NCBI GenBank assembly: GCA_045658325.1
Contig: JAZOUX010000015.1
Coordinates: 1,194 to 65,193, forward strand
Reading direction: 5' to 3'
Length of the DNA stretch: 64,000 nt
Source: Christensenellaceae bacterium
GTDB taxonomy: Bacteria > Bacillota > Clostridia > Christensenellales > Borkfalkiaceae
Under the pieces are notes generated by a model. It ran no database searches. It was not told the origin of the DNA and saw only the letters and a program-made list of their open reading frames with translations. Both the position numbers and the translations under genes were made by a program. This document shows, in pieces, positions 4,845 through 42,860 of this stretch; the stretch's first letter is position 1, and each line of letters opens with the position of its first letter.

Positions 4845-5795
4845 TTATTTTGAAAACAATCTTTTTGCGTTGTTGTAAAAAATATCTTCAACGTCTTTAA
4901 AAGTTAAGTCAAGCATAATTGAAGCCTGCCTTATTGCTAAAATATTTTCTTCATATATTTTTAAAAACGGTACTTCTTTTTGTAGATTTGGACAAGTTTC
5001 TTCTAAAACCCAACAAAATTTATCAGCGATTGAAATTGGCTTGCCTTTTAAATTTGAAATAGGATAGTCAGTACCCCACGTTACCCTACTCGTTCCACAT
5101 TTTTTAATAATTTGGAATATTGACGGGCTTTCGCATATTGCTGAAAAATCAAACCATACGTTATCTAAATGCTTAATTTTATCAACGCTTTCAACGGCAG
5201 TCCACGAAGCGAAAGAAGTAGCGCAATGCGCTAAAATTAACGTGGCGTTTGGATATTTTTTAGCCATTTTAATTATATAGTTTAAGTTATCGTTATCACT
5301 TAAAGCCTTGTCTTTTACCATATGTAAAGTTATAACCTTATTGTACTTATCGGCTATACAAAAAGCACTTTCTGGCAAATAATCTTCAATATTTAAATTA
5401 AAGGTTGATTTTTGCTTGTTAAGTGAGTGATAGCACTTAAACCCAACGATTTGTTCACTTTTTATTCTACTTAAAACGCTTTCTTCACTTTCGTAAGGCA
5501 TTACTAAAATTTCGCCAACGTTAAAAGGATTTTTATATAATTCATTATATAAAGCGTCGTCACATACTTTTAAAAAATCGTTGTTTAACGCTATTTTTCT
5601 AGACGGATACGGCAAAATATTTACTTCAATTCCTCTACCTGAAAACGAGTTTTGCATATCCAAATAATAGTTTTGTAGCGTCACGCTTTTATCTTTGCCT
5701 AGCATATACTCTTTATCGTATAAATGCATATGAACATCGAACATTTTATTTGGCAAAAAGTCGTTTATTATTTTTTTAATTTCTAAATCGTTCAT
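4845..5795 (-). CDS. amidohydrolase-family (TIM-barrel metal-dependent hydrolase) protein
   Basis: 316 aa. HMH near the N-terminus (DVHMHLYD), HCATSF and WGTDYP motifs are consistent with amidohydrolase_2-type metal ligands. Confidence 0.5.
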   Translation of the reverse strand: MNDLEIKKIINDFLPNKMFDVHMHLYDKEYMLGKDKSVTLQNYYLDMQNSFSGRGIEVNILPYPSRKIALNNDFLKVCDDALYNELYKNPFNVGEILVMPYESEESVLSRIKSEQIVGFKCYHSLNKQKSTFNLNIEDYLPESAFCIADKYNKVITLHMVKDKALSDNDNLNYIIKMAKKYPNATLILAHCATSFASWTAVESVDKIKHLDNVWFDFSAICESPSIFQIIKKCGTSRVTWGTDYPISNLKGKPISIADKFCWVLEETCPNLQKEVPFLKIYEENILAIRQASIMLDLTFKDVEDIFYNNAKRLFSK

Positions 5796-6078
5796 TATTT
5801 TAATTAAACCACGTTGATTATAATTTTGCTTGGCGTTTTTTAAAACGTAACGTCTTTATTTTGATAAAAAGAAAAGACGGTACCGATAGCAAAACAAATT
5901 TTCATCTATATTATCACCGAAAATTGAAAAGTGATATAAAGTAACAGTTACTTCAAAAATAAACGGTATTAAAACACCGATTTTTGTTTTTGACGTAAAC
6001 TAGTTAATTACCCTTAAAATTCGTCTTGTAACGTAACAAAGTTCATTTATTAATTTACCTAACTATTTTATGCGTATT

Positions 6079-7056
6079 TTAACCGAAATAATAAGTGTTT
6101 AAAATTTTGCCATCACTACTAGTAACGGTAATTCTAAAATCGTTAGGGTTTATATAGTAAGCGCAACCTTTTATATTCGGACCGTCAAAATTAGCAATTC
6201 TAAGTAAAGGATTAGATGCGAAAGTATCTATAAAAATACCGTCTCTACGCCCATCAGTGTAATGACCACGACCAATGCCACCGTCAGCATACCAAATCAT
6301 TGACGTACCGTATAAGTAATTGTTGTAAAATTTACCAAAATCTAAATCGCCGTTGTGATGATGATAACAACCCATACCGTTACGCGTACCCGCTAAAAAT
6401 TCGCCAAAATATTTATCGCCGTCAGCCCAATGCACTATACCGTAACCGTTAAGTTCACCACCTATTACTTGCACCTTGCCTTCGTACGGACAGTCGTAAT
6501 CGTAATCATATATACGCTCAACTTTTTTTGACTTGTCAAAAGGCATCATAAAAAGTCGCCAAGGAGTTAAATTATAACCACCACCCGTACTAATTTTTGT
6601 AAGATACCTTGTAACGTTACGTTTACTATCTACGTTTACAAAGTACAAGTAGCCGTCTTTATAACAAACGCCCCTATCTTTTAACGTACCGTGCTCGTAA
6701 TAACATATAACGTAACTACCGTCAATATAACTTGAAGATATATAAAAGCCGTCGTATTTACAATTTGAGTCAACCGTACTAAAATTTACATACTTTTCGT
6801 AAACGAAAGTCATATAAGGGCCGTAAATTTTGCCGTTTTTGATATAACATAAATAACTTTCTTCATCGTAGTCTTTACCCCTATGCATAAACTGACCGTC
6901 GTAGCCCCCGTTACGATGCAATTCCGTTACATTAAGCGATTTGTCTGGTTTTACATAAAAACCAGTGCCGGTAGGGGTAGAGCCGTTAATTACTTCGCCC
7001 CAATAGTAATTACCACTACTTAAATTTATACTTGCCGTATTTATTTTATTTAACAT
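6079..7056 (-). CDS. MORN-repeat-like cytoplasmic protein, function unknown
   Basis: 325 aa, rich in Y/G/D. Repeated Y-x-G-x-(5-8)-G-x-G units, for example YGIVHWADGDKYFGEFLAGTRNGMGCY. No signal peptide. Lies 47 nt downstream of sbcC on the same strand. Confidence 0.4.
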   Translation of the reverse strand: MLNKINTASINLSSGNYYWGEVINGSTPTGTGFYVKPDKSLNVTELHRNGGYDGQFMHRGKDYDEESYLCYIKNGKIYGPYMTFVYEKYVNFSTVDSNCKYDGFYISSSYIDGSYVICYYEHGTLKDRGVCYKDGYLYFVNVDSKRNVTRYLTKISTGGGYNLTPWRLFMMPFDKSKKVERIYDYDYDCPYEGKVQVIGGELNGYGIVHWADGDKYFGEFLAGTRNGMGCYHHHNGDLDFGKFYNNYLYGTSMIWYADGGIGRGHYTDGRRDGIFIDTFASNPLLRIANFDGPNIKGCAYYINPNDFRITVTSSDGKILNTYYFG

Positions 7057-7103
7057 AATTACTCCTTTTATATTTTTATTAATATAATAATTAGTTAATA
7101 CTT

Positions 7104-9881
7104 TTACAATATTTTTATCATTGCGTGGCTACCTTTGTTAGAGCCTTTTTGTTTTTCAACGATAATTTGCTTGTCTATTCTGTTTTTAAGTTCTTCAACG
7201 TGCGAAATTATGCCTACCAAACGCCTACCTTCAGTCAAATCTTGCAAAGTTGATATTGCTAAACTTAACGATTCGCCGTCAAGAGAACCAAAGCCTTCGT
7301 CTACGAACATGGTGTCAATACGAACACCACCAGCCGATGACTGAATTTCGTCGGCAAGACCTAAAGCAAGTGATAATGACGCTTTAAACTTTTCTCCACC
7401 AGAAAGTGAGTTTACGGGGCGATAAGTGCCGTTATGATAGTCGTATACGTCAATATCAAGACCAACTTGCGAACTCTTACCTAATTCGCCAACCCTACGG
7501 ACTAAATCGTACTGACCGTTTGTCATTTTTTGCAAACGAACGCTTGCACGACGAAGAATTTTATCAAAATAACTCATTTGAACGTACGTTTCAAACGATA
7601 TTTTTTCTTTATCGTTTATTCCACCGTTTGCAGTGTCGGAAAGGGTGTTCATCCATTTATAATGTTCTTCTAATTCTTTACTTTCGCCGTACGCCTTTTC
7701 TATATTAATTAAACAAGTTTTGTTAGAATTAATAAACGACACGACTAATTCTTTGTTTTGTTGTAATTGATTTTTGCTTTCAATTATCTGAATTCTACGT
7801 TGCTTTTCGCTTACTAAATCAATACTGCATACCGTTTTTAACACTTCGTTTAATAATTGTATTGATTGTTGTGTGCTTAATAATTTTTCCCATTTATCGT
7901 CTCGAATTTTTTCAGCCGTTTCGTAACCGTCTTTTAAAGTTTTAACCTTTGATTTTAACTGCTCTAAATAAATATTCGCTTGAGTTTTGCTAGCAAATTT
8001 TAACGCCTTTATAAGATTTGCTACTTGAGTTTCTTTTTCTTTTTTGCTTGCTTTATCAGTTAAAATTGCCTTTTCAATCTCGACTTGAGTTTTGCGTAAA
8101 TTTTCTAAAGCAGTTTCTTTTAAAGGACTTTGTTTGTCAATTTCAATCTTTTTATTAACGTTTAAAGTTTCAATATTAATTTTATTTTCAACGTCATCTA
8201 ACTCTTGGTGTAGGCTAAAAAGTTTATCTTTAACGCCGTTTTCGGCTTTATCTAACTCAACGTTGACTAATAAAACTTTAACGTTTTCATTTATAGATTT
8301 TTTAAGCGTTTCAATTTTACCGTTAAGCGATGCGCAATTAAAACTTTTTTCTTCAGCCAATTTAGATTGAGTTTCGGCAAGTTGTTTTGCCTTTTTAAGT
8401 TCGGCTTCGGTAACGACGGTATCACTCATACTAGCAAGAATTGGGTGAGTAGTTGAACCACATACCGGGCAAGGTTCTCCGTCTATTAAAGCGCTAGCCA
8501 TAACGCCTGCTTGACCGTCTAAAAAGCGTTTATTTAAGTCGTTATATTTATCGGCTAAATCTTTTGCGCTTTCGCTAATTTTTTTGTACTCGCTTTGCTC
8601 AGTTTCTAGTTGGCTTTCTAAGTTTTTTAATGCGTTTATACTTTCTAAAAGAGCGTTTAGTTTAGACTGTAATTCTTGTAAAAAAATTTTTTCGGCTTGA
8701 TATTTAGCCTTGTTAACTTCAGCACTAGATAAAATTTTTTGCGTTTCTTTTAAATTTTTTAACTCGGCTTCTTTTTCAAGTAACGTTTCTATGCCCGTAT
8801 CAAAATAGGTTTTATTTTTTAAAATACTATCTTCTAAAACTTTAACTTGACTTTGTAACTCGTCTAATAGGTCGTATTTAGAAAGTTCGTTTTCAATGAG
8901 AGTAATTTCTTTTTCTAAACTTATAATTTCTGGCTTTTTAGCAATTTCAACGTCTAAACGGGCTTGCGCCGTATTGTAATCTTCAGTTAGCCTTGGCAAC
9001 GTATTCTCTTTTTTATTGCGTTCTTCTACTGCTTTAGCGTATTCTTCGGCTTTGCCTATTGAAGCATTTACAATTTCTAATTCTTGCTCGATTAACGATA
9101 ATTTTTCTATAAGTTTCTTTTCTTCGTCGGTGTAAAAGGATATTATTTCACCCAACAAATCTATAATTTCTTGAGTCGTCAACTCTCCATTTTTCGCCTT
9201 ATTTAAAGAATCGTTAAAAGGACTTTCAGCGTCGCAAACTATACCTTTAACGTAAGTTAAAATATTTTCTTTTTTAGATTTAAACTTAGAATATAATTCT
9301 TTGGTTTCTTCTTTTATTTTATTTTGAATTGCTTCAAATTTATGCGTTTTAAATATTTGACGGAATATTTTTTGACGGTCATCAGTTTTTTCTACGAGAA
9401 TTTTCGTAAATTCACCTTGCGCTAGCATTGCAATTTTTGAAAACTGCTCGTAATCAACTCCGATAATATTTTTAACGGCTTTACTAACTTCCGTTTTACT
9501 TTTATCAACAATTCTTCCATCTGGATAATGAAGTTCGGCTTTTGCGCCTTGTTTAGTCGTTCCTTTGCCGTTTAACTTTTGCCTAAAGTATTCGGGGCTT
9601 CGTTTTATTTTATATAGTTTTTCATTACATAAAAATTCTAACTCAACGAACGTTTCAGTCGTATCGTCGGCGTACTTAGAACGAAGCGTTGAAACACCAC
9701 GCTCCGAACCACTAGTCGTGTCGAAAAGAGCGTAGGCAATAGCATCAAATATAGACGTTTTGCCTGCACCCGTAGTGCCTGTTACAAGAAATAAACCACT
9801 TTCGCCAAGTTTATCTAAATCAAGGGTTACGCTTTTTGCGTAAGGACCAAATGCAGACATAGTTAACTTAATAGGTCTCAT
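7104..9881 (-). CDS. sbcC: SbcC/Rad50-family nuclease ATPase subunit
   Basis: Walker A GTTGAGKTS, long coiled coil, zinc hook CPVCGS, signature LSGGEKF, Walker B MFVDEGFGSLD. TAATG overlap with sbcD. Confidence 0.85.
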   Translation of the reverse strand: MRPIKLTMSAFGPYAKSVTLDLDKLGESGLFLVTGTTGAGKTSIFDAIAYALFDTTSGSERGVSTLRSKYADDTTETFVELEFLCNEKLYKIKRSPEYFRQKLNGKGTTKQGAKAELHYPDGRIVDKSKTEVSKAVKNIIGVDYEQFSKIAMLAQGEFTKILVEKTDDRQKIFRQIFKTHKFEAIQNKIKEETKELYSKFKSKKENILTYVKGIVCDAESPFNDSLNKAKNGELTTQEIIDLLGEIISFYTDEEKKLIEKLSLIEQELEIVNASIGKAEEYAKAVEERNKKENTLPRLTEDYNTAQARLDVEIAKKPEIISLEKEITLIENELSKYDLLDELQSQVKVLEDSILKNKTYFDTGIETLLEKEAELKNLKETQKILSSAEVNKAKYQAEKIFLQELQSKLNALLESINALKNLESQLETEQSEYKKISESAKDLADKYNDLNKRFLDGQAGVMASALIDGEPCPVCGSTTHPILASMSDTVVTEAELKKAKQLAETQSKLAEEKSFNCASLNGKIETLKKSINENVKVLLVNVELDKAENGVKDKLFSLHQELDDVENKINIETLNVNKKIEIDKQSPLKETALENLRKTQVEIEKAILTDKASKKEKETQVANLIKALKFASKTQANIYLEQLKSKVKTLKDGYETAEKIRDDKWEKLLSTQQSIQLLNEVLKTVCSIDLVSEKQRRIQIIESKNQLQQNKELVVSFINSNKTCLINIEKAYGESKELEEHYKWMNTLSDTANGGINDKEKISFETYVQMSYFDKILRRASVRLQKMTNGQYDLVRRVGELGKSSQVGLDIDVYDYHNGTYRPVNSLSGGEKFKASLSLALGLADEIQSSAGGVRIDTMFVDEGFGSLDGESLSLAISTLQDLTEGRRLVGIISHVEELKNRIDKQIIVEKQKGSNKGSHAMIKIL

Positions 9882-37995: not shown

Positions 37996-38083
37996 GCGGA
38001 CATGGCGGAATTGGCAGACGCATAAGACTAAGGATCTTATGAGGGTTCACTTCGTGCAGGTTCAAGTCCTGTTGTCCGCACCA
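37996..38083 (+). tRNA. tRNA-Leu with genomically encoded anticodon AAG, class II, CCA encoded
   Basis: Hand-folded, 88 nt. Acceptor GCGGACA/TGTCCGC, D-arm GCG-GAATTGGCAGA-CGC, anticodon stem TAAGA/TCTTA with loop C-T-A-A-G-G-A (U33, A34 A35 G36, G37). 16-nt variable arm, T-loop TTCAAGT, discriminator A. Confidence 0.8.
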
Positions 38084-38206: not shown

Positions 38207-39436
38207 TTAATAATTAAGAAGTAATGCTGTTTTTTGCTGATATTCCATCGAAAAATGCGTATAAACAAGCGACGTTGTGTTCCCGGCAAAAGTATGGCCA
38301 GTCCATAAACAAACTATTTCATTTTCGATACCTACTTCACGACAGCGAGTAGTAAACGTGTGACGCAGTTCGTGAAGGTGGTGTTCCGAACATAAGGACT
38401 TGAATTTACGTCCGGCTTTATTTGCCATTTTTAAAAATGGGAATTCTTCATCCTGGTTTAATGTTTTTAAAAGCGCCTTTAATTTTGGGAATATAGGCAC
38501 TACTCTATCTGCGCCGTTGACTTTATCTTTAATTTTAGTAGTATGTATCGTAATAGTGTTTGCAGTAAAATTTAAATCTTTTAATGAAAATTGAATTGCT
38601 TCAGAAACTCTTGCACCACTATATAGCAAAAACAATAGAATCGGCTCGTAGTGGTCGCCTTTGATTTTATTAATAAAATCATTTTCTTCTTTTAACGTTA
38701 ACGCTACACCCTTTTTACGATAATGCTTTGGAATCTTTACACCAGGCATAACGTCGTTTTTAATATAGCCTAAATTTTTAGCCATTCTAAAAAGCCCTAC
38801 AAGATAACTATGAACGCCTTCGGCAGTTCTGCCTTTGCCTTCAGATATCAAACTTGTTAAAACTTCTTGAATTTGTAAAGGTTGAATTTTTGATATATCA
38901 TAGTGGCCGAGTTTTGGCGTTATATGTAGTTTAACAAGTTTTTGCAAACCCTCAAACGAGTTTGCTGCTAATTCATATCTACGATATTTGTCTAAATAAA
39001 TATCGCTAACGTCTGATACCGTTTTACCCTTTACGATATTACCTTTTTTAAATTCTTTATTGAATTCCTTTAAAAAAACCCTAAATTTATCTTGCGCAAC
39101 CGAAAGTTTAGTTGCGCAAAAACTTTTTTCTACACCGAACTTGCGAAAACGTATTTCGTAACTGCCGTTCGGTTTAATTCTTACTTTTCCATCTTTAATT
39201 GAAAACATTTCTTTCTCTCCTTTTTTTATCGGAAATTTTAAAATGTCTTCCCCATCCATTCCTGCAGAACTATATTGTTCTGCTTTTTCTGTAAAAGAAA
39301 ATGCGCTATCTTGCCTAAATTGTTCAGCAAAAAGCGCACCTTTTACACGATTAAGACTGTCAATAAATTGTTGACTTGTTGTCTTGTAGTAAGTTATAAG
39401 TTGCTCAATTAAATTAATGTAATCTTGTATTTTCAT
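38207..39436 (-). CDS. int: tyrosine recombinase / phage-type integrase
   Basis: 409 aa. SGARVSEA (box I Arg), HELRHTF (box II H-x-x-R) and LVYTH (catalytic Tyr region). Perfect AAGGAGG SD. Confidence 0.85.
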   Translation of the reverse strand: MKIQDYINLIEQLITYYKTTSQQFIDSLNRVKGALFAEQFRQDSAFSFTEKAEQYSSAGMDGEDILKFPIKKGEKEMFSIKDGKVRIKPNGSYEIRFRKFGVEKSFCATKLSVAQDKFRVFLKEFNKEFKKGNIVKGKTVSDVSDIYLDKYRRYELAANSFEGLQKLVKLHITPKLGHYDISKIQPLQIQEVLTSLISEGKGRTAEGVHSYLVGLFRMAKNLGYIKNDVMPGVKIPKHYRKKGVALTLKEENDFINKIKGDHYEPILLFLLYSGARVSEAIQFSLKDLNFTANTITIHTTKIKDKVNGADRVVPIFPKLKALLKTLNQDEEFPFLKMANKAGRKFKSLCSEHHLHELRHTFTTRCREVGIENEIVCLWTGHTFAGNTTSLVYTHFSMEYQQKTALLLNY

Positions 39437-39440
39437 TTTG

Positions 39441-39463
39441 ACTACCTCCTTATTAAAGGTAGT
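39441..39463 (-). promoter_or_regulatory. hairpin overlapping the integrase Shine-Dalgarno
   Basis: The mRNA-sense sequence ACTACCT-TTAATAAGG-AGGTAGT has a 7-bp stem whose 3' arm and loop contain AAGGAGG. It ends 4 nt before the ATG. Confidence 0.35.
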
Positions 39464-39500
39464 GTAACAAAAAAATTAACTTATAACTTAATATAACTTT

Positions 39501-39527
39501 TTCTAAAAATCGGCTTGATTTTTAGAA
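39501..39527. promoter_or_regulatory. 11-bp perfect hairpin between the XRE array and int
   Basis: TTCTAAAAATC-GGCTT-GATTTTTAGAA. No clear U-tract on either strand, so this is an attenuator or a protein-binding palindrome rather than a classical terminator. Confidence 0.35.
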
Positions 39528-39547
39528 GATTAGACATTAGTTTTTAC

Positions 39548-39709
39548 AAATATTTAATAATTTAATGCTTTACAAAAACCGATAACTTGTTGCTGTTTAT
39601 CTCTATCTAACAAATTAAAAGAAAATAACAATTCTTGTTGTATAGAAGTCAAAGAATTACCGGTTTGATTAATAACGCCAAAGTCATCTTCACGACCGAC
39701 TAAATAATC
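39548..39709. repeat. 162-bp direct repeat, copy A (3' end of XRE gene A)
   Basis: Hand alignment gives 5 mismatches to copy B and 8 to copy D. An 83-nt core at 39609-39691 is identical in all three copies. Confidence 0.9.
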
Positions 39710-39877
39710 TATAGAACAGTCAAATATATCTGATAATAACATTAAAGCATTCACGCTTGGTTCGCTACGACCTTTTTCCCATTCATAAACTAAACTTTGC
39801 GAACAATTTAATTTCGATGCTATCTCTTTGGCTGTTAAATTTTGTTCCTGGCGTAAATTTCTTAATCTAAAATTCAT
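39554..39877 (-). CDS. XRE-family HTH regulator, array member A
   Basis: 107 aa. HTH_3-type head (LTAKEIASKLNCSQSLVYEWEKG) plus the shared 51-aa tail DYLVGREDDFGVINQTGNSLTSIQQELLFSFNLLDRDKQQQVIGFCKALNY. Confidence 0.8.
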   Translation of the reverse strand: MNFRLRNLRQEQNLTAKEIASKLNCSQSLVYEWEKGRSEPSVNALMLLSDIFDCSIDYLVGREDDFGVINQTGNSLTSIQQELLFSFNLLDRDKQQQVIGFCKALNY

Positions 39878-39892
39878 ATTTTTCCCCTTTTA

Positions 39893-40054
39893 AAATATTT
39901 AATAATTTAATGCTTTGCAAAAACCGATAACTTGTTGTTGTTTGTCTCTATCTAACAAATTAAAAGAAAATAACAATTCTTGTTGTATAGAAGTCAAAGA
40001 ATTACCGGTTTGATTAATAACGCCAAAGTCATCTTCACGGCCAACTAAATAATC
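39893..40054. repeat. 162-bp direct repeat, copy B
   Basis: See copy A. The identical core is at 39954-40036. Confidence 0.9.
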
Positions 40055-40228
40055 AACTGAAACGTTTAATGCTTGAGATAAACAAATTAAAGTATTTGCT
40101 GTTGGTTCATTTTTACCAACTTCAATCATTGCAATACACGATGGCGCTAAATTAGCAAGTTTTGCAAGTTCTACTTGCGTCAACCCCCTTTCAGTTCTAA
40201 TTTCTTTTAGAATTTTTGCATAATTCAT
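39899..40228 (-). CDS. XRE-family HTH regulator, array member B
   Basis: 109 aa. Different HTH head (LTQVELAKLANLAPSCIAMIEVG) with a tail identical to A and D. AGGGGGA SD. Confidence 0.8.
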   Translation of the reverse strand: MNYAKILKEIRTERGLTQVELAKLANLAPSCIAMIEVGKNEPTANTLICLSQALNVSVDYLVGREDDFGVINQTGNSLTSIQQELLFSFNLLDRDKQQQVIGFCKALNY

Positions 40229-40269
40229 TGTAAAATCCCCCTAAAAACAAATAAATTTCATAAATACTC

Positions 40270-40322
40270 CTAATAGTTTAATGCTTTACAAAAACCTATT
40301 ACCTGTTGCTGTTTATCTCTAT
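40270..40322. repeat. partial, more diverged copy of the repeat (3' end of XRE gene C)
   Basis: TTTAATGCTTTACAAAAACC.AT.AC.TGTTGCTGTTTATCTCTAT matches the 3'-terminal ~50 nt of copies A, B and D. Confidence 0.7.
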
Positions 40323-40581
40323 TTAGAGCATTAAAAGCATCCAAAAGTTCTTTTTGTTGAATAGTTAAGATATGTTCGCGAGGAGAATCTCTACCTATTA
40401 AATAATCTACAGATACAGCGTAGTAATCAGCAATATCAATTAATCCTTGAATAGAAGGCTCCGTTCTGCCTTGCTCCCAATCGCTAACTACACTTCTTGA
40501 AACAGATAATTCTTCTGCAATATCTTTTTGACTTAATGAAGTTTCTGCCCTTAAATCTTTAAAAATTTTATTAAATTTCAT
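40270..40581 (-). CDS. XRE-family HTH regulator, array member C (diverged linker)
   Basis: 103 aa. HTH head LSQKDIAEELSVSRSVVSDWEQG. The tail is diverged except for the identical last 17 aa, RDKQQQVIGFCKALNY and context. Confidence 0.8.
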   Translation of the reverse strand: MKFNKIFKDLRAETSLSQKDIAEELSVSRSVVSDWEQGRTEPSIQGLIDIADYYAVSVDYLIGRDSPREHILTIQQKELLDAFNALNRDKQQQVIGFCKALNY

Positions 40582-40598
40582 AAATTTACCCTCTTGTA

Positions 40599-40760
40599 AA
40601 ATATTTAATAATTTAGAGCTTTACAAAAACCAATAACTTGTTGTTGTTTGTCTCTATCCAACAAATTAAAAGAAAATAACAATTCTTGTTGTATAGAAGT
40701 CAAAGAATTACCGGTTTGATTAATAACGCCAAAGTCATCTTCGCGACCAACTAAATAATC
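40599..40760. repeat. 162-bp direct repeat, copy D
   Basis: See copy A. The identical core is at 40660-40742. Confidence 0.9.
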
Positions 40761-40925
40761 TATAGAGCAATTAAATAAATCTGCTAATGTTTTCAAAATA
40801 GTAATGTTAGGCTCTAAATCTTCTCTTTCATATTTACCGACAGCTGTTTGATTACATCCTAAAGCGTTAGCAATTTCTTTTTGAGTATATCCTGCGTTAA
40901 TTCTCAATTCTTTAATTCTGTTCAT
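40605..40925 (-). CDS. XRE-family HTH regulator, array member D (promoter-proximal)
   Basis: 106 aa from ATG 40925, with a GAGGGG SD upstream. The ORF-track start at 40946 is probably too long. HTH head YTQKEIANALGCNQTAVGKYE plus the shared tail. Confidence 0.8.
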   Translation of the reverse strand: MNRIKELRINAGYTQKEIANALGCNQTAVGKYEREDLEPNITILKTLADLFNCSIDYLVGREDDFGVINQTGNSLTSIQQELLFSFNLLDRDKQQQVIGFCKALNY

Positions 40926-40951
40926 TTTATAACCCCTCAATATCACTTTTT

Positions 40952-40969
40952 AGTCCATTTTAGAATATT
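40952..40969. promoter_or_regulatory. operator-like repeat O1
   Basis: AGTCCATTTTAGAATATT matches 41023-41040 at 16 of 18 positions. It lies just upstream of the -35 of the rightward promoter and just upstream of the XRE-D start. Confidence 0.45.
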
Positions 40970-40983
40970 TTTTTAAAAATTGC

Positions 40984-41012
40984 TTGACAAGTTCCAAAAT
41001 AGGCTATATAAT
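40984..41012 (+). promoter_or_regulatory. perfect consensus sigma-A promoter (rightward)
   Basis: TTGACA at 40984-40989, a 17-nt spacer, then TATAAT at 41007-41012. Confidence 0.65.
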
Positions 41013-41022
41013 CATCTCAAAC

Positions 41023-41040
41023 AGTCCATTATGGAATATT
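41023..41040. promoter_or_regulatory. operator-like repeat O2 with internal dyad
   Basis: AGTCCATTATGGAATATT contains the dyad TCCAT-T-ATGGA. It is positioned at about +10 to +30 relative to the rightward promoter. Confidence 0.45.
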
Positions 41041-41116
41041 CCCCCCTGTAAATTACAATTTTTTAGTAAAAAAGTTATTGCCTTATATTTAGAATCGGCT
41101 AAAACTTTAAATATTT

Positions 41117-41167
41117 AGACCAAAAGCAATTTATCAGGGGAACTGCTTTTGGTCTATTTTATTTTTT
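41117..41167 (+). terminator. intrinsic terminator inside the 5' leader of the rightward operon
   Basis: Perfect 12-bp stem AGACCAAAAGCA/TGCTTTTGGTCT, a 15-nt loop, then ATTTTATTTTTT. Lies 35 nt upstream of the ATG at 41202. Confidence 0.6.
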
Positions 41168-41201
41168 CCGGACGTCCGGAAAACAACAAGGAACGTACAA
41201 A

Positions 41202-41447
41202 ATGAAAAACTTAAAAAAGAAGGTTAATATTTTAACCGTTTATGAACTTTGCAAAAAACTTAAGGTCGATATTATTAAATTAAGATATTGTCCTACAGGA
41301 AAATATGCAACGTATTTTACCCCAGGAGCATTGCACGATTCAATGTCAATCATTGTGCCAGAACACTACTTTTTAGTGATTAAGGAAGGTAAAAAAACAA
41401 TTTATATAACCATTTATCTTGAGGGGGTTAATTATGAAAGTATTTAG
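41202..41447 (+). CDS. hypothetical 81-aa protein (possible excisionase-type HTH at the N-terminus)
   Basis: AAGGAA SD 9 nt upstream. LTVYELCKKLKVDIIKLRY loosely resembles Xis/AlpA-type HTH. Overlaps the next ORF by 14 nt. Confidence 0.4.
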   Translation: MKNLKKKVNILTVYELCKKLKVDIIKLRYCPTGKYATYFTPGALHDSMSIIVPEHYFLVIKEGKKTIYITIYLEGVNYESI

Positions 41448-42267
41448 CGTTAATCCACTGCACTTAAATTTGCCCAAAGATTATATTGAAATTCGTAAAT
41501 GCGACGACGGTAGCGTGCAGTTATATTTTTACGATAGCAAGAAAATTGAAATTCAATATGATTTTAGTAAATATAACCCAACGCAAGAACTAACAATAAT
41601 TCCTACAATTAAAGGACGTAACATTCAAATTGTTTGTGTTGTTATAAAGACTTCCGAAAATTGGTTTTCACTTACAACCCTTTACAAATACAAAACGGTT
41701 ACGGTTCCGGCAAAAGGTTATAAGGAAGAAAACAACCAATATTTTATTCAAGAATTGGCTAAAAATCAAACATTTCATCCTAGTTATATCCCTATGAATA
41801 ATCCACTTCTTAATTTTGAACAAATAGTTCATAATTGTGCAGATATAACTAATGAACAAAAGATTTATTTAAAAGAAGCAATTAAATGCCATATAAATGA
41901 ATGTTATTTGGGTTTTACTTCTTTATTAGGGACATATTATGAGGATTTGTTGATTCAGTTTTGTAAAAGTTATGAAAATAGAATAAGGAGTCATTTTTCA
42001 ACTCTCTTAACTATTTATCAAAACAGTGTCATAAATTGCAAAAAAGCAAAAAAACGTTTAGAAAACTTGCTTGACTTTATAAAAAATAGTTCACGCGATA
42101 TAAACTTTTTTAATTCCAATGGAATAGAATCGTTAAATGATATTTCTTTAACGTTTGACGTCATACGAAAATATAGAAATGATATAGACCACCCTATCAA
42201 AGTCAAATGCGTGCGGCTATGGCAACCGAAAAGGGTTACTTTAAGGATGAAATTATTCCTGTTATAA
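41434..42267 (+). CDS. hypothetical protein with a C-terminal HEPN/DUF4145-like helical domain (Rx4H); native 3' end apparently replaced
   Basis: ATG at 41434 with a GAGGGGG SD. The helical region from about aa 135 ends in IRKYRNDIDH (R-N-D-I-D-H at 42175-42192). The last ~19 codons run out of frame into the thiolase fragment. Confidence 0.5.
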   Translation: MKVFSVNPLHLNLPKDYIEIRKCDDGSVQLYFYDSKKIEIQYDFSKYNPTQELTIIPTIKGRNIQIVCVVIKTSENWFSLTTLYKYKTVTVPAKGYKEENNQYFIQELAKNQTFHPSYIPMNNPLLNFEQIVHNCADITNEQKIYLKEAIKCHINECYLGFTSLLGTYYEDLLIQFCKSYENRIRSHFSTLLTIYQNSVINCKKAKKRLENLLDFIKNSSRDINFFNSNGIESLNDISLTFDVIRKYRNDIDHPIKVKCVRLWQPKRVTLRMKLFLL

Positions 42268-42860
42268 TTCCAGCCACAAAGAAAACTCCGGAAATTGTTT
42301 TTGATACCGACGAGTTTTTACGTCCGACCACAACAATGGAAGGACTCTCTAAGTTAGCTAGTGTTAAGCCAAACGGTGTTACCACAGCAGGCAACGCTTC
42401 TGGAAGAAACGACGGTGCTTCAATGCTTTTATTGATGAGTGAAGAAAAAGCAAAAGAATTAGGATATACACCTTACGCAAGATTTGTTATGGCAGGTAAC
42501 AGCGCGTTAGACCCTAAACTTATGGGATTAGGTCCTGTAAAGGCAAGTCTTGATGCGCTTAACAAAGCTGGTTTGACTATTGACGATATTGATGTTTGGG
42601 AATGTAACGAAGCATTTGCATCTCAAAATCTTGGTGTAATTAGAGGTCTTGAGGAAGCCACTGGCAAAAAAATTGATAGAGAGCGCTGGAATCCTAATGG
42701 TGGAGCTATTTCCTTTGGTCACGCTAACGGCGCTTCGGGCGGTAGAATTGCTATGTTTACTATGCGCGAACTTGAACGTAGAGGCGGTCGCTACGGCTTG
42801 TTTACTTCTTGTTGTGGCGGAGGCCAAGGGGTAACAACCATTATCGAAAATCTTCGTTAA
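42207..42860 (+). pseudogene. 5'-truncated acetyl-CoA acetyltransferase (thiolase) fragment, C-terminal ~215 aa only
   Basis: Aligns by eye to thiolase from about residue 180 onward: GYFKDEIIPV, TAGNASGRNDGA, NEAFASQ, NGGAISFGHANGASG, CCGGGQG. The N-terminal domain with the nucleophilic Cys is absent. GC content and codon usage are visibly higher than the surroundings. Confidence 0.8.

Follow-up and report, generated by a model that had tools for sequence, protein, structure and literature searches.

A tandem array of small XRE repressors with diverged heads and a common tail in an integrative element of gut Clostridia: a possible stack of heteroimmune immunity repressors

The immunity repressor is the textbook one-per-phage switch protein. 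In a 64,000-nucleotide (nt) stretch of a Christensenellaceae bacterium (assembly GCA_045658325.1, contig JAZOUX010000015.1, positions 1,194 to 65,193 of the forward strand; hereafter the window), four genes for small XRE-type repressors, A to D, stand in tandem beside a tyrosine integrase gene, and three of them encode diverged DNA-binding heads on one identical tail. The array proteins are two-domain XRE immunity repressors of the CI/ImmR/AimC kind, that is, a known kind of protein in a new arrangement. Sequence comparison identifies the array, together with the tyrosine integrase gene and opposite a divergent early operon, as the lysogeny module of an integrative element of 13.4 kb. We put the probability at roughly 55% that it is a stacked set of heteroimmune immunity repressors, which would provide multi-type immunity against sister elements.

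All four XRE/HTH_3 (helix-turn-helix, HTH) genes are co-directional on the minus strand and occupy 39554-40925 of the window:

40925..40605, minus strand: repressor paralog D, 106 amino acids (aa), promoter-proximal; head 40761-40925, tail 40605-40760, direct repeat extending to 40599
40581..40270, minus strand: repressor paralog C, 103 aa, with a tail type of its own
40228..39899, minus strand: repressor paralog B, 109 aa; head 40055-40228, tail 39899-40054, repeat extending to 39893
39877..39554, minus strand: repressor paralog A, 107 aa; head 39710-39877, tail 39554-39709, direct repeat extending to 39548

An earlier reading of the same DNA from its letters alone (the sequence-only reading) had described four back-to-back co-directional genes beside an integrase, each with its own Shine-Dalgarno sequence and separated by 21-41 nt, and both the listing of open reading frames (ORFs) and the raw sequence agree with it: the gaps between successive genes are 21, 41 and 23 nt, and a G-rich Shine-Dalgarno stands at every gene. 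D starts at an ATG with a GAGGGG Shine-Dalgarno (106 aa); a GTG at 40946 would give 113 aa. Pfam HTH_3 (PF01381) is matched by A, B, C and D at 51-54 bits (cut-off 23, E ~1e-14) and PHROGs classes the proteins as transcriptional repressors, while Peptidase_S24, the autocleavage domain of lambda CI and LexA, gave no Pfam match in these 103-109 aa proteins. The final 51 aa are indeed identical across A, B and D, and the heads, earlier estimated to be about one-third identical, share 29-43% of their residues in pairwise comparisons within the array. In C, for which the earlier reading gave just the terminal ~17 aa as identical, only the last 16 aa (RDKQQQVIGFCKALNY, ~40270-40320) match the array consensus; the C tail remains alignable and recognisably homologous further upstream, with a 6-residue gap.

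We compared the window with related loci, chiefly L001 (GCA_045645345.1), L085 (GCA_017468205.1, JAFUJK010000061.1) and L002/L087 (ENA ERZ28018778 k141_1365344); all compared sequences are short-read metagenome assemblies. The array order is D-C-B-A in the window, D-E-C-B-A in L001, where a fifth gene, E, is present, and E-C-B-A, with no D, in L002, L085 and L086. Orthologous heads are 100% identical between strains and the variation within the array is confined to the tails; proteins identical or near-identical to A-D also occur on a few other uncultured Clostridia contigs. Two short contigs have odd gene orders, L088 (1-1537) reading ..B]-A-C-B-A-int and L089 (1-824) reading C-B and then the start of C again, with a B tail whose middle has diverged (VVNQSNNVLTVSQQELLYSF). 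Because both start or end inside the repeats, their orders are uncertain and may represent real variants or assembly loops. Such contigs, and the metagenomic origin of all the data, could be taken to mean that short-read assemblers joined repressor genes of co-existing element variants at the repeats. We regard this as very improbable, as the array lies inside long contigs (64 kb for the window, 45 kb for L001), its spacers are unique and the identical core of the tail repeats measures just 83 nt, shorter than usual reads and k = 141 contigs. Moreover, the same genes in the same order with identical heads were recovered in independent NCBI and ENA assemblies of different projects (L001, L002, L085, L086 and L088), and thus the array is, as far as can be told, not an artefact.

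Our interpretation draws on the observation that heads of the array types stand as first or only repressor in sister elements, each beside a candidate operator of its own type (ATATTGCTTTTGCAATAT for E, ATCGCAGTTATTCTGCGAT for A-like and AATGAGTGATTTTTACTCATT for C-like heads, as against AGTCCATTATGGAATATT for D). E is the first gene in L002, where the 130 bp upstream are wholly unlike those in the window and hold TTGCAA-type palindromes, among them ATATTGC-TTTT-GCAATAT within the TTGACA/TATAAT promoter spacer; in L001, where E comes second, 42 nt behind D, it lacks these upstream palindromes. A-like heads, 79-84% identical to A and with the recognition helix CSQSL(V/I)YEWE kept, belong to the only repressor in L003 and L090 and adjoin ATCRCAG-N5-CTGYGAT palindromes, which are confined to these two loci among the 90 screened and absent from the window. 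The C-like protein P0166, 84% identical overall to C, is the first or only repressor in L252, beside AATGAGT-N7-ACTCATT, a sequence present in L252 alone among 252 loci and likewise absent from the window. The A-like and C-like operators thus occur in no other fetched locus, including every array-bearing element; the E-type palindromes were not screened across loci, and in the window they are scattered and uninformative. When aligned, the four control regions have in common a two-hairpin leader, an ACAGGG motif and a -35 element, with type-specific sequence exactly at the operator positions. This shared scaffold with its type-specific positions suggests that no fewer than four immunity types exist in the family and that they are represented in the array.

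The primary repressors of the sister elements carry different tails of their own. The tail of A and that of P0005 have diverged (about one-third identical by eye, not computed) though the heads are 79% identical, and the tail type of C is that of P0166. Tails thus go with the array and heads with the immunity type. Furthermore, since E, A-like and C-like heads stand first or alone beside other operators elsewhere, targets in trans are suggested for them rather than mixed operators in cis.

The control region between the array and the early operon comprises the following features:

40984..41012, plus strand: early-operon promoter, TTGACA-17-TATAAT, a perfect consensus with 12/12 matches in the promoter scan
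40962..40990, minus strand: promoter-like site of the array (and integrase), TTGTCA-17-TATTCT, weaker than the early promoter in the same scan
40952..40969, no strand assigned: candidate operator O1, AGTCCATTTTAGAATATT, second copy of the 18-mer, overlapping the -10 element of the array promoter
41023..41040, no strand assigned: candidate operator O2, AGTCCATTATGGAATATT, palindrome TCCATtATGGA, just past the early transcription start
41116..41183, plus strand: two conserved leader hairpins, the first (41116-41156) followed by a U-run and terminator-like

The -35 elements of the array and early promoters overlap, and that of the array is conserved as TGTCAAG in four immunity types. The O2 18-mer is the sole perfect copy in the window and recurs at the homologous promoter site of L001, its other copies among the fetched loci being chance singles at unrelated sites in L006 and L012. 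With this palindromic-core 18-mer at the positions expected for D, the layout of O1 and O2 fits repression of the early operon together with negative autoregulation by one repressor, presumably D; across the full element, no further palindromic operators were obvious. In the scan, no sense-strand promoter- or terminator-like site was detected between the array genes, and therefore A-D probably form one operon. The leader extends over ~180 nt from the early promoter to the first early gene, its second hairpin being UUUUCCGGACGUCCGGAAAA. Both hairpins are kept in the heteroimmune relatives L090 and L252, with four compensatory pairs, and suggest an attenuation or antitermination gate or a small RNA.

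The same control region bears on a different interpretation, in which the identical tails would bring the four heads together as mixed dimers or tetramers that read asymmetric or composite operators of their own element, giving graded or combinatorial control. Such pairing would be in keeping with the identity of the tails and with their predicted two-helix hairpin of oligomerising kind; XRE paralogs with related tails are known to heteromerise in the SinR/SlrR/SinI group (1b0n), and the distinct tails of C in the window lineage and of gene 3 in a second array, L006 (described below), could define another pairing group. However, the control region contains two copies of one symmetric-core 18-mer of the D type only, with no hybrid half-sites evident, and it is unchanged between the window and L001 although the composition of the array differs. 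E, A-like and C-like heads, for their part, are sole or first repressors beside symmetric operators elsewhere. We consider combinatorial control unlikely.

According to the interpretation that we favour, a stack of heteroimmune repressors, A-D and the integrase would be transcribed as one operon from a promoter overlapping the divergent early promoter. The promoter-proximal D is probably the resident repressor of the element itself and would bind O2 at the start of the early transcript and, more weakly, O1 over its own -10 element. C, B and A, as well as E in the relative, would represent the immunity specificities of heteroimmune sister elements, stacked behind D, and the carrier would thereby repress incoming relatives of several immunity types and, in this way, keep them out or silence them. 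The common tail would most likely serve as an oligomerisation module and possibly as a handle for a common inducer. Several points weigh against this interpretation. The inner genes could be silent. Among the related loci, no element with a B-type head as primary repressor was found, and for A and C the specificity is an extrapolation from relatives whose heads are 79-93% identical. Identical tails that dimerise should yield mixed dimers and dilute the homodimers, which is awkward for independent immunity, and the likeness of the tail to AimC and SinR is one of predicted architecture only. Finally, the mosaic tails could in part be assembly chimeras, the data all being short-read metagenomes, and the window copy stands in a decayed element and may be heading for loss.

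At the nucleotide level, the tails are direct repeats of 156 nt of coding sequence plus 6 nt past the stop codon, and the copies differ from each other at 5, 7 and 8 positions. Every one of the 10 variable sites (repeat positions 12, 15, 18, 102, 111, 117, 129, 138, 144 and 145) is synonymous, an outcome with a chance probability of 8e-8 (19.6% of single-base changes in the tail are synonymous), and positions 19-101 (83 nt) are identical in the A, B and D copies. The 162-bp repeat with 5-8 synonymous-only mismatches and an 83-nt core, as given by the sequence-only reading, was thus recovered in full, and the selection on the tail peptide that it proposed is supported by the synonymous-only sites, by a non-synonymous divergence (dN) of 0 against a synonymous divergence (dS) of 0.19-0.33 in the window, and by a dN/dS of 0.065 over all tails. 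It had also attributed the conserved core either to gene conversion or to a constraint on the nucleotides themselves. The former is in line with the mosaic and concertedly evolving tails; an RNA or nucleotide constraint was rejected, because the core varies at position 50 between strains and gene conversion suffices, the fold z-score being just -2.3 and Rfam giving no match.

The distribution of differences between the window and L001 is uneven. The heads show 0/681 differences, the tails 12/605 (Fisher p = 1e-4 versus heads) and the integrase 59/1230 (p = 6e-12 versus heads), whereas the spacers, the leader and the spacer between A and the integrase show 0. Codon 17 encodes Gly in all window tails and Asp (G17D) in tails D, B and A of L001 together, and the B tail of L001 has A-type states at positions 111 and 117. 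The window D tail has E-type bases at 144 and 145, and the spacer behind it (D-C) is the spacer found behind E in L001; thus the window array is the product expected of a crossover between a D tail and an E tail in a five-gene array. The sequence comparison supports gene conversion and unequal crossover among the tail repeats, with purifying selection acting on the peptide, and it indicates that the tails, as direct repeats, mediate unequal crossovers that add or delete cassettes. The proposal that the repeats change cassette number is thereby borne out by the three orders D-C-B-A, D-E-C-B-A and E-C-B-A and by the D/E hybrid tail and spacer. Cassette shuffling by the integrase, in the manner of a shufflon or integron, was rejected, as the repeats are ~160 bp long, coding and direct and their junctions are homologous hybrids; that the attachment (att) core of the integrase is a tRNA 3' end, in single copy in the window, also counts against it. 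The variation of the array appears to be a matter of homologous crossover and conversion, not of site-specific recombinase action.

The unique sequence of the array region (heads, spacers, leader and A-integrase spacer; 1159 nt) is identical between 39437-41201 of the window and 8303-10441 of L001. Identity over 1159 nt despite 4.8% divergence in the integrase and ~20% in the host suggests that recombination has spread the array module very recently, or else that the region is under unusually strong constraint.

Crossover and conversion that are ongoing at the tails, together with cassettes gained or lost between close relatives and the rarity of arrays (one further case in 240 loci), would also be compatible with a non-adaptive recombination scar, in which repeated exchange of immunity regions between heteroimmune elements, at the linker and tail, strands former repressors downstream and the inner genes, having no role, persist because they are young. 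Yet all assemblies compared have intact inner array genes, every one of which retains a Shine-Dalgarno of its own, the tails have a dN/dS of ~0.07 with dN = 0 in the window, and the array is unchanged even in the decayed window copy. L006, moreover, keeps a four-gene array with tail dS up to 0.55, which means that this array is not young. A scar of this kind seems improbable to us.

We then considered what the tail may do. An AlphaFold2 (AF2) model based on a 13-sequence alignment (mean predicted local distance difference test score, pLDDT, of 83) consists of a five-helix HTH at residues 5-60, a low-confidence linker at 66-74 and a tail of two helices at 78-89 and 92-106 with a pLDDT of ~90. 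The full-length Foldseek matches were 3op9, DdrO, the phi106 AimC repressor with AimX, and SinR/SinI (1b0n), and the best PDB sequence match of the heads was ImmR of ICEBs1 (7t8i). The tails alone gave no Pfam match even at E = 10 and no PDB sequence match, so homology to SinI or AimC is not claimed and the resemblance is architectural only; nor did the DNA pattern of the tail 3' end have an exact match in IMG/VR or the JGI metagenomes. According to a 2025 preprint, AimC dimerises through a C-terminal domain of two antiparallel helices, which pair across the dimer as a four-helix bundle; this domain is the target of the antirepressor AimX, which takes the place of the second AimC subunit (bioRxiv 10.1101/2025.11.23.689978). 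The AimC-type layout of HTH, linker and two helices is seen in our monomer model, with AimC among the Foldseek matches and no sequence similarity in the tail. By analogy, the tail is most likely an oligomerisation module and possibly a target for an inducer, and heterodimers via identical tails are plausible.

Were the tail kept mainly for one partner, an antirepressor or a protease encoded by the element or the host, a single signal could release all repressors at once and oligomerisation would be secondary. The C-terminal part is the point at which the inducer attacks in ImmR/ImmA, DdrO/IrrE, SinR/SinI and AimC/AimX, and the tails match the array and not the head lineage, as in A and P0005, where the head is 79% identical and the tail has diverged. 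On the other hand, the elements yielded no ImmA-like gene, no S24 gene and none that encodes a tail alone, although most of their proteins lack a recognisable family; a tail-profile search of six-frame segments of the elements returned no SinI-like tail-only ORF, only the repressors themselves. A common handle as the main purpose of the tail is, in our view, quite unlikely.

The element that carries the array could be delimited by comparison of its circular and integrated forms. The circular L085 and the integrated L086 are identical up to a 26-mer at the end of a tRNA-Leu gene and diverge right after it, which identifies the 26-mer as the att core. The corresponding features of the window are:

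37996..38083, plus strand: tRNA-Leu(AAG), from ARAGORN and Rfam tRNA, with its 3' end facing the integrase
38058-38083, plus strand: att core, the last 26 nt of tRNA-Leu (AGGTTCAAGTCCTGTTGTCCGCACCA), from the L085/L086 comparison
38207..39436, minus strand: tyrosine integrase, 409 aa, the last gene downstream of the array, with Pfam Phage_integrase, Phage_int_SAM_3 and Phage_int_M
41202..41447, plus strand: first early gene, 81 aa, conserved in L001 and L002
41419..41722, plus strand: 5' part of the 120-aa gene of the element, the remainder of the element being lost past 41722

The integrase belongs to PHROG 1 (E 2e-48) and is 95.2% identical at the nucleotide level to the L001 copy. A 13,382-bp contig occurs in two permutations, L085 and L002/L087, with attP following the integrase, and the element therefore assembles as a circle. 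Assignment of the array to a lysogeny module is in accordance with the integrase and tRNA-Leu att core alongside, the divergent overlapping promoters and this circular form. The window and L001 share 95-100% identity over the element but just 75-84% over the chromosomal flanks, which points to recent transfer between diverged hosts.

The earlier reading did not mention that the array sits in a decayed remnant. The window retains 3.7 kb of the element, its integrase-repressor end, and ~9.7 kb are lost. Homology to the full element ends at 41722 (BLAST of L001, L002 and L085 against the window) and the window contains no second att copy, so the element is truncated here, not complete. For the 81-aa product of the first early gene, there was no Pfam or PHROG match and the AF2 model (pLDDT 55) was unusable. 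A 282-aa ORF at 41419-42267 consists of the first ~100 codons of the 120-aa element gene fused to unrelated sequence, and this fusion runs into a thiolase gene (42207-42860) without its N-terminal ~180 codons; the junction within 41419-42860 reflects either a genuine deletion or chimeric joining within the contig of a metagenome-assembled genome (MAG).

In the full element, no tailed-phage hallmark, capsid, terminase or conjugation gene was recognised, most of its proteins being of no recognisable family, and it encodes large membrane-anchored proteins of 988 and 616 aa. Among annotated records, the repressor and integrase of the element are most like those encoded by the circular 9.8-kb genome of 'bajarodino virus 12', which comes from rodent faeces and is filed under Inoviridae (PQ006185.1); a search of a plasmid database returned the tRNA as the sole match. 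Such an element could be either a temperate virus without a tail or a mobilisable island. The early operon of L001 includes a C5-type DNA methyltransferase-like gene (PHROG 757; 7064-7843) that is not present in L085 (4076-4414), and the corresponding position of L006 is occupied by an MT-A70-type methyltransferase, as if it were a variable cargo slot.

To assess how common such arrays are, we ran a family profile against 240 related loci drawn from IMG/VR, metagenomes and the genomes of species representatives. A single additional case of diverged heads with a long tail in common came to light, L006 (JAFWXO010000005.1, Clostridia bacterium RGIG6162, a sheep-gut MAG), with four repressor genes followed by a homologous integrase at 5019-7954. 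Genes 1, 2 and 4 share a different tail, of 61 aa, that is 93-95% identical, on heads that are 39-45% identical, and dS reaches 0.55; the repeat runs at least 60 nt past the stop codon, and gene 3 has a tail of the window's type. The operators of the first gene are ACGCAATATTTGCGA, in two copies, and the early genes are distantly homologous to those of the window element. By these sequence features, L006 is an independent four-gene array. Tandem XRE pairs with identical short C-termini are commoner than long-tail arrays, and a HMMER search of 1.8 billion representatives was dominated by polyproteins with 2-33 XRE heads. Several of these end in one two-helix-type tail, e.g., P0021 (5 heads), P0035 (3 heads), P0023 and P0052, and the polyproteins look like a fused counterpart of the array. 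A published description of repressor arrays, or of concerted evolution of XRE proteins of this kind, was not found in the paper library searched, in agreement with the initial impression that the arrangement is not a described system.

It is tempting to go further and to speculate, more tentatively, that the array is an expandable library of the immunity specificities of competitors. Heads would be captured by recombination at the SIDYLxGREDDFG linker/tail, refitted with the array's own tail by conversion and co-expressed to silence or exclude relatives, and the uniform tail may in addition poison incoming repressors via mixed oligomers. We regard this extension as possible, though doubtful; if true, it would amount to a repressor-based, heritable, multi-target defence among mobile elements, or by a host that keeps their remnants. 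Independently of such a library, four to five heteroimmune repressors in one operon would demonstrate that mobile elements can build up immunity against related elements. The array also offers a clean case of a shared oligomerisation module, as which the tail is predicted to act, kept uniform by conversion and selection while the DNA-binding modules stay distinct. The sequences define four types of head and as many types of candidate operator, and, if specificity is confirmed, the heads would be a ready set of orthogonal small repressors on a common scaffold for synthetic biology. In addition, the findings draw attention to the poorly known ~10-13-kb integrative elements of gut Clostridia.

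The organisation described here has parallels in several known systems. As in the immunity regions of heteroimmune phages (cI of lambda, 434 and P22, or rstR of CTXphi), the repressor is divergent from the early operon, and operators and head behave as an exchangeable cassette on a conserved scaffold, with four types on one scaffold in the array family. To our knowledge, known phages have one immunity repressor per genome, whereas the array stacks four to five specificities in one operon, lacks the S24 autocleavage domain, and has a tail that varies between elements and is uniform within an array. In the immR-immA-int module of ICEBs1, a repressor is likewise co-transcribed with the integrase, beside att and divergent from the excision and transfer operon; in contrast to ICEBs1, the present 13.4-kb element has several repressor paralogs rather than one and no recognisable conjugation genes, and a gene for an ImmA-type metalloprotease is missing both from the repressor-integrase interval and from the rest of the element. 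AimC/AimX, SinR/SinI/SlrR and DdrO are small XRE proteins with a five-helix HTH, a flexible linker and C-terminal helices, and the same layout is predicted for the array proteins; the C-terminal helices of AimC, SinR and DdrO oligomerise and are the point of attack of an antirepressor or protease. No aimR, aimP or aimX gene was seen in the window element, L001, L002 or L085. SinR-family paralogs heteromerise via related tails but, unlike A-D, are not known to form tandem arrays with nucleotide-level repeats. The multi-HTH XRE polyproteins of metagenomes similarly combine several different heads with one tail of this general type, but carry them fused in a single chain.

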